Assembly: GCF_024298765.1 (NCBI RefSeq)
Contig: NZ_CP101210.1
Length of the DNA: 64,000 nt
Direction: 5' to 3' (one strand)
Source of the DNA: Escherichia coli
GTDB taxonomy: Bacteria > Pseudomonadota > Gammaproteobacteria > Enterobacterales > Enterobacteriaceae
This document shows positions 6,931 through 60,009 of this stretch, piece after piece. How positions within the stretch are numbered: the stretch's first letter is position 1; the number at the start of each line of letters is the position of its first letter. Under the pieces are notes generated by a model. The model ran no database searches. It saw only the letters and a program-made list of their open reading frames with translations, and had not been told where the DNA came from. A program made the position numbers and the translations under genes.

Positions 6931-6953
6931 TTGCCTGTTGTTGTCAGCTTTGT

Positions 6954-6982
6954 AAAAAAACCCGCTCTGGCGGGTTTTTTTA
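6954..6982 (+). terminator. rho-independent terminator of rpsT
   Basis: aaaaaaacccgctctggcgggttttttt: GC stem-loop followed by T-run immediately after the rpsT stop. Confidence 0.65.
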
Positions 6983-7025
6983 TATCCATCTGCAGGCCAA
7001 AATTCGGCCTGCAAAGTACAAATGT

Positions 7026-7931
7026 TTATTTTGAAGCTGGAGTAAACAGCGCAGAATAGTCTGTATTGCAGATACGCTGTACTGCAGGGTGCTGAATCAT
7101 CCTTTCGGCAAAAATCGCGTGGTACTCTTCCATCACGTTCTCAACACGGCCTATCTCCACAACCGAGTCATCGTTATAGAAATCATTAGCGTAAAGCGAA
7201 GGTGCAACGAAAATAGCGTTATGCGTCGCCCCAAAGGCTTTCATCAACGCAGCATCATCAAACTCACCCAAAATTTCGACGTTCAAGCCCTGGGAGTTAA
7301 ACCAGTTTAATAGCTTACGCCCCAACATTGAGCGACGCCCCGGAATAAGTAAACGACGCTCTTCAAGACAGGCAGGAAACGGCTTTTCTGGTAGTGGGTT
7401 AGTGCACCAGAAACTGACACCACATTCGCCAATTTTCATGGAAAACAGCCCTTCCTGCTGAGTGGAATCGATCGGACAGTCAGAGATGATCATATCCAGT
7501 TTATGCTGACTCAACTGCTCTAAAAGCATCTCGTGCGTCGATTCGAAACAGCGTAGATGGATCTGCTCGTCTTCCACAACTGCGGCATCCAGAACACTGC
7601 TGACCAGACGTTTGGAAAGTGCATCTGCCACACCAACATCAAACAATAAGTTGGATTCTTTGCGATAGTTCACGATATCCAGCATTTCCTGGCTTAAGGT
7701 GAACATTTTATCGGCATAGCGATAGACCAGCTCTCCCAGCTCGCTGGGCTCGAGGCCACGTCCCTTGCGCTTAAATAATTTGCCTTGCAGGCGCTCTTCC
7801 AGCGCCCGAATCTGTCCGGTAATGGTTTGTGGTGTTAAATAAAGCGCCTCCGCTGCGCCAACCACGGAACCTTCTTTATAGACATGCCAGAAGTAATACA
7901 AGTGGTTGTAATTGATATGAGACATGCTCAT
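7026..7931 (-). CDS. nhaR: LysR-family transcriptional activator NhaR
   Basis: ORF 7026..7949; known N-terminus [30 protein letters not shown] at an internal ATG; 301 aa. Confidence 0.93.
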
Positions 7932-7990
7932 TTCTCTCCCTGATAACAATGAAAAGGGAGCCGTTTATGGCTCCCCGGTAAACCGTCCTG

Positions 7991-9157
7991 TCAAACTGAT
8001 GGACGCAAACGAACGCGTAACCAGCTGTATCCAATTACCGCCGAAGAGATAGAACCGACCAGGATACCGAGTTTCGCCCAGTTAATCAGTTCTGGATCTA
8101 CGCTACCAAAGGCCAGGCTGGCAATAAAGATAGACATAGTAAAACCGATACCGCACAGGATCCCCACCGCCATAATTTGCTGATAAGTCGTTCCCTCAGG
8201 CAGATGCGCCAGTTTCAAACGCAGCGCCAACCAGCAGAACAGACTAATCCCCAGCGGTTTGCCAATCAGCAAGCCAGCGATGATCCCCAATGGCAGAATG
8301 GAGGTCAAGCCATCCAGCGTGACGCCTTGCAGTGAAACGCCAGCATTAGCAAATGCAAACAGCGGTAAAATCAGATACGCCACCCACGGGTGCAACACAT
8401 GCTCCAGTCGCTTCGCTGGAGAACGCCCATGCTTCTCTTTCAAAGGAATAAAGAAGCCGACAATTACCCCCGCCAGGGTTGCGTGAACCCCCGATTTCAA
8501 CACCGCAGTCCACAACACCACGCCAACCAGAATATAGACGCCCGTGCGGCGTACACCACACAGATTCAATACCGCGAGTACCGCAATTGCTACAGCCGCG
8601 ACGCCAAGAGAGGCCATCGATAAGTCATTAGTGTAGAACAATGCGATGATAATGATGGCCCCAAGATCGTCGATAATAGCCAGAGCCATCAAAAAGATCT
8701 TCAGGGCTAACGGAACACGACTTCCCAACAGCGCCAGCACACCAAGTGCAAAAGCAATGTCAGTAGCCGCCGGGATCGCCCACCCTTCGCGGGTAATCGG
8801 ATCGGCATGGTTAAAGGCCAGATAGAGTAATGCCGGCACAATCATCCCACCAATAGCGGCGATAACTGGAAATGCAGCCTGGCGTAAGCTGGCTAGCGAT
8901 CCTTGCATCAGTTCACGTTTAACTTCCAGACCGACTAACAGGAAAAATACCGCCATCAGCGCGTCATTTATCCATAACAGCATGTTTTTGTTGATTTCGA
9001 GTGAACCAACCCGGAGCTGAACCGGCGTCTCCAGAAAGTCGTGATACCATCCACTGGTTGCGCCGCTGTTGGCCATAATCATCGCCAGGATAGCGGCAAT
9101 GATAAGAATAATGCCTCCCGAGGCATCACTGCTAAAGAATCGATGCAGATGTTTCAC
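7991..9157 (-). CDS. nhaA: Na+/H+ antiporter NhaA
   Basis: 388 aa polytopic membrane protein [31 protein letters not shown]... Confidence 0.96.
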
Positions 9158-9654
9158 TTTTTATTTCTCTTTCAGGTGAATAGATCGTTTTTACTATCTT
9201 ACCCCGCACGAATCATCGTTAAAATCAGATTATAGTGTAGGAATAATTCGCTTTTTACGAGGCATTGAAAGATTTGCGTCATCAGTGATGATATGAGTTT
9301 TTGACGGCTGTAAGCGCTGACGTGTGACCCTAAGCCCTGATAATCATAGCTTAAGGTAAGGATTTCTGAGGGATTAATTGGGAAAAGTAATAATTAATTT
9401 GTTGTCAGTCGGCGATGTTTGTTAGGCCAATACTTCAAAAATAATCCAGTTTGTCGTCAATAATTGCGATGAAGAGATAAATTAAAGTTAAATAATTAAA
9501 TCATTAAAAAATTACGCCATAAAAATGCGAGGCGTCTTCAGGATTAGAATCGATAAAACAGAATGGGTTAAAGAGAGCGATATAATAGCGGCGGGTGCTT
9601 GAGGCTGTCTGTCTCAGGCATTAGCTGAACGGCAGATAGAGAAAAGCCCCGAGT

Positions 9655-9720
9655 GATATTTTACTATCAACCCGAGGCCCCCTATATGCAGAACACATGT
9701 AGAGTGCCTCTTACTGACCG
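9655..9720 (-). ncRNA. sokC: putative Sok-type antisense RNA (sokC) overlapping the mokC start region
   Basis: Inferred only from the architecture of hok/sok loci; promoter and ends not located in the sequence. Confidence 0.25.
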
Positions 9721-9895
9721 TAAGGTCAAGGAGAAGAGAGCAATGAAGCAGCATAAGGCGATGATTGTCGCCCTGATCGTCATCTGTATCACCGCCGTAG
9801 TAGCGGCGCTGGTAACGAGAAAAGACCTCTGTGAGGTTCACATCCGAACTGGCCAGACGGAGGTTGCTGTTTTCACGGCTTACGAATCCGAGTAA
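9686..9895 (+). CDS. mokC: Mok-type regulatory reading frame overlapping hokC
   Basis: In-frame extension upstream of hokC reading MQNTCRVPLTDRKVKEKRAMKQHKAM... Confidence 0.55.
   Translation: MQNTCRVPLTDRKVKEKRAMKQHKAMIVALIVICITAVVAALVTRKDLCEVHIRTGQTEVAVFTAYESE
9743..9895 (+). CDS. hokC: Hok/Gef-family type I toxin (small membrane peptide)
   Basis: 50 aa MKQHKAMIVALIVICITAVVAALVTRKDLCEVHIRTGQTEVAVFTAYESE, canonical Hok family sequence. Confidence 0.8.
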   Translation: MKQHKAMIVALIVICITAVVAALVTRKDLCEVHIRTGQTEVAVFTAYESE

Positions 9896-9998
9896 GAGCA
9901 ACGGCGGGGAGTGATTCCCGCCACTTTTCAGGTGCTCGCATATCTTCAACGCACCCTGGTTTTACCCAGGCCTGCCCACGGGCAGGCTTTTGGGGAGG

Positions 9999-11129
9999 TT
10001 AGCGGGTCAGGTCGTCAAAAAACTTCTTCACACCATCAAAGAAGCTCTTTGAGCGCGGGCTGTTGTGCTCGCCGGTTGGGCCACCGAAGCTTTCTTGCAG
10101 CTCTTGCAGCAGCTGTTTCTGCTTCTCGTTCAGGCCTACCGGTGTTTCGACGACAACGCGGCACAGCAAATCACCCTGTGCGCCACCGCGGACAGACTTG
10201 ACGCCTTTACCGCGCATACGGAACAGCTTACCGGTCTGGGTTTCGCCAGGCACTTTCAGTTTGACGCGACCATCAAGGGTCGGTACTTCGATTTCGCCAC
10301 CCAGCGCCGCCATAGCGAAGTTGATCGGGACTTCGCAATACAGGTTGTTACCTTCACGCTCGAAAATCGGGTGCTGTTTAACCTGAACCTGAACGTACAG
10401 ATCGCCTGCCGGTGCGCCATGCTCGCCCGCTTCACCTTCGCCCGCAAGACGGATGCGGTCTCCAGTGTCCACCCCTGCCGGGATTTTAACGGACAGCGTT
10501 TTGCTGCGCTCAACACGACCATGACCATGACATTTGTTGCACGGATCTTTGATCAGCGTACCGCGGCCCTGACAGTGTGGACAGGTCTGCTGCACGGCAA
10601 AGAAACCCTGGCGCATCTGCACCTGACCAGAACCATGACAGGTCGGACAGGTCTGCGGCTGTGTACCTGGTTTTGCACCGCTACCGTGGCAAACGTCACA
10701 CTCTTCCAGAGTCGGAATGCGGATCTCTTTGGTCACGCCACGTACAGCTTCTTCGAGGGTGAGCTCCATGTTATAGCGTAAATCAGCACCGCGCGCCGCA
10801 CGTTGACGACCACGTCCGCCGCCAAAAATATCGCCGAAAACGTCACCAAAAATATCGCTGAAGTCTGCGCCGCCGCCAAAACCGCCGCCGCCCATGCCGC
10901 CTTGATCAAACGCAGCATGACCATACTGATCGTATGCCGCACGTTTTTGCGAGTCGGTCAGAACTTCATAAGCTTCCTTGATCTCTTTAAATTTCGCCTC
11001 GGCCTCTTTGTCACCCTGGTTACGGTCCGGGTGGTATTTCATGGCCAGGCGTTTGTAGGCCTTTTTGATTTCACGCTCTTCCGCTGTTTTGGAAACGCCT
11101 AAAATCTCGTAATAATCTTGCTTAGCCAT
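9999..11129 (-). CDS. dnaJ: chaperone DnaJ (Hsp40)
   Basis: ORF 9999..11159; known start [14 protein letters not shown] at an internal ATG; J-domain HPD motif, G/F-rich region, four CxxCxGxG zinc-finger repeats. Confidence 0.97.
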
Positions 11130-11217
11130 CTTTTTTAAATTGCCCCTAGATGAATGCACGGGCGGAGAGGAAATACCCCTTCGCCCGTGTCAGTATAATT
11201 ACCCGTTTATAGGGCGA

Positions 11218-13134
11218 TTATTTTTTGTCTTTGACTTCTTCAAATTCAGCGTCGACAACATCGTCATCTTTCGCGTTGTTTGCAGAAGCATCAGCACCGG
11301 CAGTCTGCTGCTGGGCATGTTGCTGCTGGGCGATTTCCATCAGTTTCTGGGAAACCTGTGCCAGTTCCTGCATTTTCGCTTCGATAGCGGCTTTGTCTTC
11401 ACCTTTCAGAGCAGTTTCCAGTGCAGTCAGTGCAGACTCGATAGCAGTTTTGTCGTCAGCCGGCAGTTTGTCGCCCGCTTCTTCAACCTGCTTACGGGTG
11501 CTGTGCAGCAGATGGTCGCCCTGGTTGCGAGTCTGTACCAGCTCTTCAAACTTACGGTCAGCTTCGGCGTTAGCTTCTGCGTCGCGTACCATTTTCTGGA
11601 TTTCATCTTCGTTCAGACCAGAAGAAGCCTTGATGGTGATCTTCTGCTCTTTACCGCTGTTTTTATCTTTCGCGGAAACGTGCAGGATACCGTCAGCATC
11701 GATATCGAAGGTAACTTCGATCTGCGGCATGCCGCGCGGTGCCGGGTTGATACCATCCAGGTTGAACTGACCCAGAGATTTGTTATCAGCTGCACGTTTA
11801 CGTTCACCCTGCAGCACGTGGATGGTTACCGCAGACTGGTTGTCTTCAGCGGTAGAGAACACCTGGCTGTGCTTGGTCGGGATAGTGGTGTTTTTCGCGA
11901 TCAGCGTCGTCATCACACCGCCCATGGTTTCGATACCCAGAGACAGCGGGGTAACGTCCAGCAGCAGTACGTCTTTTACGTCACCAGTCAGAACACCACC
12001 CTGAACAGCAGCACCGATTGCTACAGCTTCGTCCGGGTTAACGTCTTTACGCGGCTCTTTACCAAAGAACTCAGCAACTTTCTTCTGAACCATTGGCATA
12101 CGAGTCTGACCACCAACGAGGATAACGTCGTCGATATCAGATACGGACAGGCCAGCGTCCTGCAGTGCAACTTTCAGCGGCTCAATGGAACGGTTTACCA
12201 GATCTTCAACCAGGCTTTCCAGTTTCGCACGAGTCACTTTGATGTTCATGTGTTTCGGACCGGTCGCGTCTGCAGTGATGTACGGCAGGTTAACGTCGGT
12301 CTGCTGAGCGGAAGACAGCTCGATTTTCGCTTTTTCTGCCGCTTCTTTCAGGCGCTGCATTGCCAGCGGATCGTTGCGCAGGTCAATGCCCTGATCTTTC
12401 TTGAATTCTTCAACCAGGTAGTTGATCAGACGGCTGTCGAAGTCTTCACCACCCAGGTGGGTATCACCGTTGGTTGCCAGAACTTCGAAGGTTTTTTCGC
12501 CGTCAACTTCGTCGATTTCGATAATAGAAATATCGAAAGTACCACCACCCAGGTCATAAACCGCGATAGTACGGTTGCCAGTACCTTTGTCCAGACCGTA
12601 AGCCAGCGCAGCTGCGGTCGGTTCGTTGATGATACGTTTTACTTCCAGACCAGCGATACGGCCTGCGTCTTTGGTTGCCTGACGCTGAGCATCGTTAAAG
12701 TATGCCGGTACGGTGATAACAGCTTCAGTTACCGGTTCACCCAGGTAATCTTCAGCGGTTTTCTTCATTTTTTTCAGCACTTCAGCAGAGATCTGCGGCG
12801 GTGCCATTTTCTGGCCTTTAACTTCGACCCATGCGTCGCCGTTATCAGCAGCAATAATTTTGAACGGCATGATGGAAACATCACGCTGTACTTCTTCGTC
12901 CTGGAAGCGGCGGCCAATCAGGCGTTTAATCGCAAACAGGGTGTTTTGCGGGTTCGTCACTGCCTGACGTTTAGCCGGCTGACCAACCAGAGTTTCACCA
13001 TCCTGGGTATAGGCAATGATAGAAGGCGTGGTGCGATCGCCTTCGGCGTTCTCCAGTACACGAGGAGTGGTGCCATCCATAATCGCTACACAAGAGTTGG
13101 TAGTACCCAGGTCGATACCAATTATTTTACCCAT
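11218..13134 (-). CDS. dnaK: chaperone DnaK (Hsp70)
   Basis: 638 aa [21 protein letters not shown]... with Hsp70 signatures. Confidence 0.98.
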
Positions 13135-15377: not shown

Positions 15378-15406
15378 GATCCCCCCGCTCGGGGGGATTT
15401 TTTTAT
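15378..15406. terminator. bidirectional rho-independent terminator between satP and mog
   Basis: gatccccccgctcggggggatttttttatt: perfect G/C stem with a T-run on one side and A/T on the other. Confidence 0.65.
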
Positions 15407-15990
15407 TCGCTAACGTCGCGTCTTGCACTCTTCGGTCTGAATGCTGCAACCACTTCCGGTGCCGTTTCAATGTATGGCCCTTCCAGCAACTGAATGCAGT
15501 ACGGTACGCTGGCAAAAATACCATGCACCACAACGTTACCCGCAGCGTCCTTCACGCCTTCCAGCGTCTCTTTAATCGACTTCGGCTGACCGGGTAAGTT
15601 AAGGATCAGCGCCTGTTTGCGAATCACGCCCACCTGACGCGAAAGGATCGCAGTTGGTACAAAATGCAGGCTGATCTGGCGCATCTGTTCACCAAAGCCA
15701 GGCATCTCGCGGTCCGCTACTGCCAGCGTCGCATCGGGCGTTACGTCACGACGCGCCGGGCCAGTTCCGCCCGTGGTGAGCACCAGATGGCAACTCATTT
15801 CATCCACCAGCTCACACAACGTTTGCTCGATGATCGCCTGCTCATCGGGGATTAAGCGGGTTTCCAGTTCAAACGGCGTGGTTAGCGCCGATGTCAGCCA
15901 TTCTTCCAGCGCAGGGATGCCTTTATCCTGATAAACGCCGCTGGATGCGCGATCAGAGATGGAAACTAAGCCAATACGTAAAGTATTCAT
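15403..15990 (-). CDS. mog: molybdopterin adenylyltransferase Mog
   Basis: ORF 15403..15993; MNTLRIGLVSISDRASSGVY... from the second Met; 195 aa. Confidence 0.93.
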   Translation of the reverse strand: MNTLRIGLVSISDRASSGVYQDKGIPALEEWLTSALTTPFELETRLIPDEQAIIEQTLCELVDEMSCHLVLTTGGTGPARRDVTPDATLAVADREMPGFGEQMRQISLHFVPTAILSRQVGVIRKQALILNLPGQPKSIKETLEGVKDAAGNVVVHGIFASVPYCIQLLEGPYIETAPEVVAAFRPKSARRDVSE

Positions 15991-16104
15991 CAAGATTTTT
16001 CCGTTTAAACAGTCTCGTTAAACAGAATGATACACTGCGAAGGGAGTGACAGACAGGCTTCAGAAGAGGTAGCGTGACCGACTTCCCGGTCACGCTAAGA
16101 ATGA

Positions 16105-17058
16105 TTACAGCAGATCGCCGATCATTTTTTCCAGTTTTTCCTGGTCAACAGCAAACTTACGGATACCTTCCGCCAGTTTATCTACTGCCATTGGATCCTG
16201 GTTATGCTGCCACAGGAACTCGGACTCAGTGATACGCGCCGGACGCGCTTTCACTTCGCCGGTGTAAGACAGTTTACGTTCGATAGCCCCTTCGCTCTCA
16301 GCCAGCTCTTTCAGCAGTGCCGGTGCGATGGTCAGACGGTCGCAGCCTGCCAGTTCCAGAATTTCGCCGATGTTACGGAAGCTTGCGCCCATAACCACGG
16401 TTTCATAACCGTGCTCTTTGTAGTACTGGTAGATTTCAGATACAGAAACCACGCCTGGATCTTCTGCCGGAGCGTACTCTTTCTTATCGGTATTCGCTTT
16501 GTACCAGTCAAGAATACGGCCAACAAACGGCGAGATCAGGAACACGCCCGCTTCCGCACAAGCACGAGCCTGAGCGAAGGAGAACAGCAGGGTCAGGTTA
16601 CAGTTGATGCCTTCTTTTTCCAGCTGTTCTGCAGCACGGATACCCTGCCAGGTAGAAGCCAGTTTGATCAGAATACGATCGTTGCTAATCCCTGCATCGT
16701 TGTAGAGTTTGATCAGGCGTTTTGCTTTCGCAATTGACGCTTCGGTGTCATAGGAAAGACGCGCATCAACTTCAGTTGAGATACGGCCCGGAACCAGTTT
16801 CAGGATTTCCAGACCAATATTTACTGCCAGTTTGTCGGTCGCGTCCACGATCTGCTGCGCGCGATCGTTGCTCTGCTGTTTCGCCCAGGCGACAGCATCA
16901 TCAATCAACTTACGGTATTCCGGAATCTGCGCTGCGTTAAGAATGAGAGAAGGGTTGGTTGTGGCATCCTGCGGTTGATACAGCTTCATTGCCGCGATGT
17001 CCCCAGTGTCGGCCACTACGGTGGTGTACTGACGAAGGGAGGTCAATTTGTCCGTCAT
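16105..17058 (-). CDS. talB: transaldolase B
   Basis: ORF 16105..17121; known start [38 protein letters not shown] at an internal ATG; 317 aa. Confidence 0.96.
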
Positions 17059-24982: not shown

Positions 24983-25016
24983 TCGAAAAAAAAGCCCGCA
25001 CTGTCAGGTGCGGGCT
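24983..25016 (-). terminator. thr operon attenuator terminator
   Basis: Minus strand agcccgcacctgacagtgcgggct followed by a run of eight T, between thrL and thrA. Confidence 0.8.
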
Positions 25017-25039
25017 TTTTTCTGTGTTTCCTGTACGCG

Positions 25040-25108
<69 letters not shown>

Positions 25109-51683: not shown

Positions 51684-51900
51684 CCGGATGTGGCCTACGG
51701 ATCGGCACAGACCTGTAGGCATGATAAGACGCGTCAAGCGTCGCATCAGGCATTGTGCGCCAGCTGCCGGATGCGGCGTGAACGCCTTATCCGGCCTACG
51801 GTTCGGCACAGACTTGTAGGCATGATAAGACGCGTCAGCGTCGCATCAGGCATTGTGCGCCAACGGCCGGATGCGGCGTAAACGCCTTGTCCGGCCTACG
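51684..51900. repeat. BIME: three REP copies separated by two copies of a roughly 65-bp spacer unit
   Basis: Repeated gccggatg(c/t)ggc...cctacgg(a/t)tcggcacagac(c/t)tgtaggcatgataagacgcgtca...gcgtcgcatcaggcattgtgcgcca units. Confidence 0.85.
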
Positions 51901-59686: not shown

Positions 59687-59773
59687 GCGAAGGTGGCGGA
59701 ATTGGTAGACGCGCTAGCTTCAGGTGTTAGTGTCCTTACGGACGTGGGGGTTCAAGTCCCCCCCCTCGCACCA
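59687..59773 (+). tRNA. leuQ: tRNA-Leu (anticodon CAG)
   Basis: 87-nt gcgaaggtggcggaattggtagacgcgctagcttcaggtgttagtgtccttacggacgtgggggttcaagtcccccccctcgcacca with CCA end and long variable arm; copy name assigned by operon order. Confidence 0.93.
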
Positions 59774-59801
59774 AAAACCACGTTGATATTGCTCGCACTG
59801 G

Positions 59802-59888
59802 GCGAAGGTGGCGGAATTGGTAGACGCGCTAGCTTCAGGTGTTAGTGTTCTTACGGACGTGGGGGTTCAAGTCCCCCCCCTCGCACCA
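59802..59888 (+). tRNA. leuP: tRNA-Leu (anticodon CAG)
   Basis: Second 87-nt copy; differs from the flanking copies by one base in the variable arm (gtgttc versus gtgtcc). Confidence 0.92.
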
Positions 59889-59922
59889 AACGAGGCAATA
59901 TCAAAAAAAGTAAGATGACTGT

Positions 59923-60009
59923 GCGAAGGTGGCGGAATTGGTAGACGCGCTAGCTTCAGGTGTTAGTGTCCTTACGGACGTGGGGGTTCAAGTCCCCCCC
60001 CTCGCACCA
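59923..60009 (+). tRNA. leuV: tRNA-Leu (anticodon CAG)
   Basis: Third 87-nt copy, identical to the first; coordinates cross-checked against the overlapping spurious ORF 59929..60123. Confidence 0.93.

Follow-up and report, generated by a model that had tools for sequence, protein, structure and literature searches.

An uninterrupted hokC/mokC/sokC locus in Escherichia coli, probably an ancestral type I toxin-antitoxin module with R1-type regulatory architecture

In Escherichia coli K-12 the chromosomal toxin gene hokC is described in the literature as inactivated by an insertion 22 bp after its reading frame, which raises the question of what a copy of the locus without that insertion retains, and of whether it should be expected to behave like the hok/sok system of plasmid R1. 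Such a copy lies in the window, the stretch of 64,000 nucleotides of an E. coli chromosome analysed here, which shows 100% identity, over the 853 bp tested, with the chromosome of strain 104, a chicken isolate. The locus occupies the plus strand between nhaA (7991-9157) and dnaJ (9999-11159), flanked farther out by nhaR (7026-7949) and dnaK (11218-13134), all four of these genes being on the minus strand and the orientation of the window opposite to that of the K-12 map. The other RNA features of the window are ordinary for the region and comprise tpke11 in the dnaK-dnaJ interval (11130-11207), the thr leader (24985-25104), two naRNA4 elements of the REP type (51718-51896) and three tandem tRNA-Leu(CAG) genes (59687-60009). 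The coding features of the locus are:

9743-9895, plus strand: hokC (gef) toxin reading frame, 50 aa; match to Pfam HOK_GEF (PF01848), E 1.8e-24
9686-9895, plus strand: mokC frame, 69 aa, in frame with hok; Shine-Dalgarno sequence GAGG at 9674-9677
9881-9884, plus strand: UACG motif at the Tyr47 codon (GGCUUACGAAUCC), a candidate TadA A-to-I site (Tyr to Cys)

The 50-aa translation scores 85.5 bits against PF01848, for which the cut-off is 22, as befits a small hydrophobic toxin of the Hok/Gef type, and the Mok translation matches the same family (E 4.6e-24); with both matches in hand, a chance open reading frame was rejected. The two frames share the stop codon at 9893-9895, lie inside the listed open reading frame 9653-9895 on the plus strand, and display an arrangement (an upstream frame with its own Shine-Dalgarno sequence, in frame with hok) that is also present in the R1-type locus, by analogy with which translation of hok would be coupled to that of mok. 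The mokC frame is as long as that of K-12 (210 nt), and the Hok protein, WP_000809168.1, is identical in strain 104 and in strains whose locus is interrupted by an insertion sequence. The original prediction had placed a 50-aa Hok and its in-frame Mok extension between nhaA and dnaJ, with the two stop codons about 100 bp apart and no transposase between them, and this description holds: the spacer from the hok stop to the dnaJ stop measures 103 bp (9896-9998), and no transposase reading frame was found in it. As regards annotation, the 50-aa, 153-nt hok frame of strain 104 (locus L012, 3086-3238), like that of many other genomes, bears the RefSeq/PGAP name “mokC: type I toxin-antitoxin system toxin MokC”, and neither sokC nor the 69-aa mok frame is annotated alongside it. 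The UACG motif at the Tyr47 codon is kept in all ten aligned hok-family loci; A-to-I editing by TadA with Tyr to Cys recoding has been reported for hokB, and a similar phenomenon for hokC, hokD and hokE.

The elements of the hokC transcript that correspond to those of R1-type systems can be assigned as follows:

9581-9586, plus strand: putative -10 element TATAAT of the hokC/mokC promoter, read from the sequence, with a weak -35
9593-9991, plus strand: predicted full-length hokC mRNA, about 399 nt up to the terminator U-run
9593-9604, plus strand: tac element GGGUGCUUGAGG at the mRNA 5′ end, paired with 9944-9956 in the full-length fold
9644-9650, plus strand: ucb-like box AAGCCCC, with which tac pairs in the alternative predicted folds
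9903-9922, plus strand: GC-rich hairpin GGCGGGG-AGUGAU-UCCCGCC after the hok stop, present in every fold
9944-9956, plus strand: fbi element CUUCAACGCACCC, pairing with tac from the 3′ side
9970-9991, plus strand: hairpin GCCUGCC-CACG-GGCAGGC resembling a terminator, with UUUU after it, shortly ahead of the dnaJ stop

The 5′ end at about 9593 was set from the start of the match to Rfam family RF01794 and from where the R1-type hok mRNA begins in an alignment, and the TATAAT motif, invariant in seven E. coli alleles, sits 6 nt upstream of this conserved end. The interval 9640-9998 originally ascribed to the locus therefore misses its 5′ part. The Rfam match itself (9593-9745; 118.8 bits, gathering score 59) lies on the mRNA-sense strand, so that it marks the hok leader and does not by itself show an antisense gene; the family is named “sok antitoxin (CssrC)”, yet its model describes the stretch between the start of the hok mRNA and the AUG of hok.

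The full-length transcript (9593-9991) has a minimum free energy of -163.2 kcal/mol, with z = -6.05 relative to shuffled sequences, and in this fold tac and fbi form 12 bp with one bulge, leaving the 5′ end with an unpaired probability of 0.01; fbi is invariant in the seven E. coli alleles. In predicted folds of a 336-nt form (9593-9928), as well as of the leader alone, 9593-9600 pairs instead with 9644-9650, a tac-ucb pairing that the RF01794 consensus structure likewise draws. Truncation at 9928, just 3′ of the GC-rich hairpin, was chosen as the homologue of the R1 processed end, and replaced an arbitrary cut at 9943, discarded after it gave the 5′ end another partner (9926-9937). No clear opening of the mok Shine-Dalgarno sequence and AUG upon truncation was seen in these thermodynamic folds, in which their unpaired probability stayed low. 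The hairpin at 9903-9922 is presumed to be the point at which 3′ trimming stops. That at 9970-9991 probably acts as the hokC terminator, although it was not called by a consensus scan and its U-run comprises only four U.

On the opposite strand, two features complete the locus:

9636-9694, minus strand: SokC antisense RNA, 59 nt, located by transferring K-12 sokC (16952-17010) through an ungapped alignment
9701-9729, minus strand: SokC promoter, with -35 TTGACC (9729-9724) and -10 CACTCT (9706-9701) separated by 17 nt

SokC differs from its K-12 counterpart by three substitutions (9665, 9680 and 9690) and its predicted fold (-22.6 kcal/mol, z = -4.2) leaves the 5′ tail, which complements the mok Shine-Dalgarno sequence and AUG, single-stranded ahead of a terminator-like hairpin followed by the U-rich UUUUCUCU. 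Its promoter is identical in K-12 and can be aligned to the Sok promoter region in loci of the R1 type; a consensus promoter scan missed it, the -10 being weak with two of six matches. Since such scans failed to call both this promoter and the hokC terminator, the two assignments rest on homology to K-12 and to R1-type loci. With a promoter of its own, complementarity to the mok start and a terminator hairpin, the minus-strand segment has the sequence attributes of an antisense Sok gene.

How the locus differs from that of K-12 follows from direct alignment. In MG1655, IS186A (15387-16731, insL1) lies between dnaJ and hokC, and the statement of the original prediction that K-12 has IS186 just downstream of hokC and that the locus is deemed inactivated there is confirmed by this sequence and by the literature. 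The uninterrupted arrangement of the window was looked for in K-12 as well and is not present there. The window aligns without gaps to both flanks of the K-12 IS186, with eight substitutions in all across the locus, and the alignment puts the insertion point inside the hairpin (window 9903-9922), so that 1.3 kb of IS186 cuts the K-12 hok mRNA off from the hairpin's 3′ arm, from fbi and from the terminator; according to a cited account, the K-12 transcript ends within the insertion sequence. K-12 hokC/mokC/sokC (b4412/b0018/b4413) shares with the window the nhaA-dnaJ site, an identical Hok and the length of the Mok frame, whereas residue 2 of Mok is Q in the window and L in K-12 (as implied by the codon CTG), and the sequence that is continuous in the window is interrupted by IS186A in the K-12 hairpin after the stop. 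Farther along, the rpsT-nhaR spacer (6931-7025) measures 95 bp in the window versus 1194 bp, with IS1A, in K-12, and the window is thus without both insertion sequences that K-12 carries in this neighbourhood.

The uninterrupted arrangement is nothing special. A 161-nt probe across the IS186 site (window 9850-10010), for which a continuous match denotes an uninterrupted locus, matched without a break in 3814 of 5426 complete E. coli genomes (about 70%), and in the remaining ~1611 the match broke at query positions 58-65, where the hairpin lies. Intact hokC is hence the majority state and IS-carrying K-12 the exception. Among E. coli genomes, IS186/IS421 has entered the hokC hairpin in one orientation or the other, which implies at least two independent insertions. 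The K-12-type junction is found in at most 829 genomes and the opposite one, as in LD27-1, in at most 939, both figures (from 170-nt queries) being upper bounds in which cross-hits to IS186 next to other hok loci were reduced but not removed; 100-nt junction queries were contaminated by those same copies. In LD27-1 the element lies inside the hairpin, with a target duplication of ~11 bp over the hairpin centre, and equivalent insertion sites map to ~488 and ~1832 in locus L001 and to ~870 and ~2226 in that of LD27-1 (L013). Repeated insertion fits a hot spot of the form GGGG-N6-CCCC. The LD27-1 locus has been hit twice, as it also carries IS150 in the leader/SokC region (L013, 2472-3900; about window position 9668). 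IS186/IS421 is also found directly downstream of other hok loci, chromosomal or plasmid-borne (Hok/Gef, hokE and hokD), with junctions ~88-91% identical to that of hokC (L014, 965-2425; H201, H217 and H259), which suggests that their homologous hairpins attract the same insertion sequence.

Seven diverse uninterrupted alleles, that of the window and others that include O157 and urinary isolates, show a mean column identity of 98%, with tac, ucb, the Sok promoter, the start sites, the hairpin, fbi and the terminator invariant or nearly so. Four substitutions, at 9665, 9802 (synonymous), 9916 and 9928, are private to the window, occurring in none of the six other alleles, and none of them breaks an element. 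The C-to-T change at 9916 turns the G-C pair that closes the hairpin into G-U and the GGGG-N6-CCCC motif into GGGG-N6-TCCC. No disabling change in the regulatory elements emerged from alignment with K-12, which had been proposed along with the original prediction, or with the six other alleles. An intact native 3′ region, as that prediction envisaged, is supported: hairpin, fbi and terminator are in place, and in the predicted full-length fold the 5′ end pairs with fbi.

A wider comparison, of the window with nine plasmid hok loci (one R1-type, whose Hok is 100% identical to R1 Hok, three hokD-like, two IncHI-type, and one each from Photobacterium, Aeromonas and Kosakonia), reveals a single order of elements common to all ten. 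Each has a GC-rich hairpin just past the stop, whose arms differ among loci but stay complementary, that is, they covary, and each has a complement of its 5′ end 47-61 nt after the stop. The tac motif of the window recurs in six of the ten, with covarying variants in the other four; cognate 5′/3′ pairs outscore cross-type pairs, and compensatory changes are evident in the R1-type loci (GGGUGC:GCACCC versus GGCGC:GCGCC, U:A to C:G) and in locus L007 (U:A to G:C). The energy of the tac-fbi duplex is ~2.5-5 sd better than that of mononucleotide shuffles, the best of which equal it, and because energy separates the duplex so weakly from shuffled sequences, the case for this pairing rests on position and covariation. 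An analysis of the hok family by Gultyaev, Franch and Gerdes in 1997 reportedly argued from position and covariation as well.

Set beside R1 hok/mok/sok (parB), the window has the same succession of promoter, tac, first hairpin, ucb, Sok target, mok and hok, continuing with the hairpin after the stop, fbi and the terminator, and the same in-frame mok extension. The full-length R1 hok mRNA is 398 nt long, compared with the ~399 nt predicted for the window. The two loci differ in that R1 Hok has 52 aa and a clearly different sequence from the 50-aa Hok of the window, R1 has GGCGCUUGAGG as tac and GAAGCGCC as the fbi that matches it, unlike the pair in the window, and the Sok -10 is TATCCT in R1 and CACTCT in the window; the R1 locus fell below the E-value cut-off in a BLASTN search with the window locus.

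Judged on sequence, every element of an R1-type hok/sok system is present, and the locus is very probably an ancestral, uninterrupted hokC/mokC/sokC type I toxin-antitoxin module with the R1 regulatory architecture. Transcription, processing, control by Sok and toxicity in strain 104 would follow by analogy, and the mechanism sketched here draws on homology, with the fold predictions in support. A constitutive promoter (-10 at 9581-9586) would yield a full-length mRNA of ~370-400 nt, in which pairing of tac (9593-9604) with fbi (9944-9956) would lock the molecule, preventing both translation and Sok binding. Slow exonucleolytic trimming from the 3′ end would take off fbi and halt at the hairpin (9903-9922), leaving ~336 nt, whereupon the 5′ end would re-pair with ucb (9644-9650) and the mok start would become accessible. 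SokC would then bind the mok Shine-Dalgarno/AUG region, blocking translation of mok and of the coupled hok, and the duplex would be degraded; were SokC to fall, Hok, a 50-aa inner-membrane toxin, would be made. In K-12 and in ~30% of E. coli genomes, IS186 has split the hairpin and parted fbi from the mRNA, and the window has been spared this.

Could the continuity of the locus be an artefact of assembly, with a repeat collapsed or skipped and the real genome carrying the insertion as K-12 does? Draft assemblies do sometimes collapse insertion sequences, but nothing specific to this locus points that way, whereas the window agrees with a complete genome at 100% identity, the same continuous junction recurs in the 3814 complete genomes noted above, and the hairpin is single and unduplicated, without the scar of a target-site duplication. 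The complete-genome identity and the matching junctions led us to reject this explanation, whose probability we regard as negligible. The main rival is of another kind, being compatible with the same anatomy and differing only in outcome: the locus may be structurally intact but physiologically silent, for instance because the balance between SokC supply and mRNA activation prevents toxin synthesis, and would then persist as the relic of an addiction module once borne by mobile elements, either neutral or in slow decay. That an IS186 insertion is tolerated in ~30% of genomes is in keeping with such silence. It is harder to reconcile with the strong conservation of seven diverse alleles, non-coding elements included, with the identity of the Hok protein in many lineages, and with the toxicity on overexpression reported for HokC, as for other Hok-family frames. 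A CRISPRi preprint, moreover, found knock-down of sokC to be deleterious even in K-12, most strongly in minimal medium, with the caveat that a dCas9 block at sokC also covers the hokC leader; harm in a strain with an interrupted locus means that the IS186 insertion is not a clean on/off switch of activity. On balance we consider physiological silence unlikely, while still deserving attention. The insertions could also be read in the opposite sense, their occurrence in both orientations and in ~30% of genomes reflecting, beyond target-site preference, selection to disarm an active and costly toxin. We hold this to be improbable; if true, it would imply that the intact allele is physiologically active in wild strains. 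Within the same reading, the private change at 9916 could make this allele a poorer target for IS186.

To return to the reading of the window as an intact ancestral module, its arrangement is the norm of the species and already known, having been described in wild strains in 1999. As later papers summarise that study (Pedersen and Gerdes, Mol Microbiol 32:1090), it characterised an IS-free hokC in strain ECOR24 that has the tac, fbi, mok and sok features and gives an mRNA of ~330 nt, in agreement with the 336-nt truncated form predicted for the window; this allele reportedly mediated neither post-segregational killing nor rifampicin-induced killing. R1 hok/sok, by comparison, stabilises plasmids through post-segregational killing, and the suggestion in the original prediction of a functional hok/sok system is overstated in the light of the reported ECOR24 results, the absence of killing and of activation by rifampicin making R1-like killing by an intact hokC under native control doubtful.

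The significance of the uninterrupted locus extends little beyond its correct annotation. It does indicate that verdicts of inactivity reached for chromosomal hok loci in K-12 should not be transferred uncritically to wild strains of E. coli.
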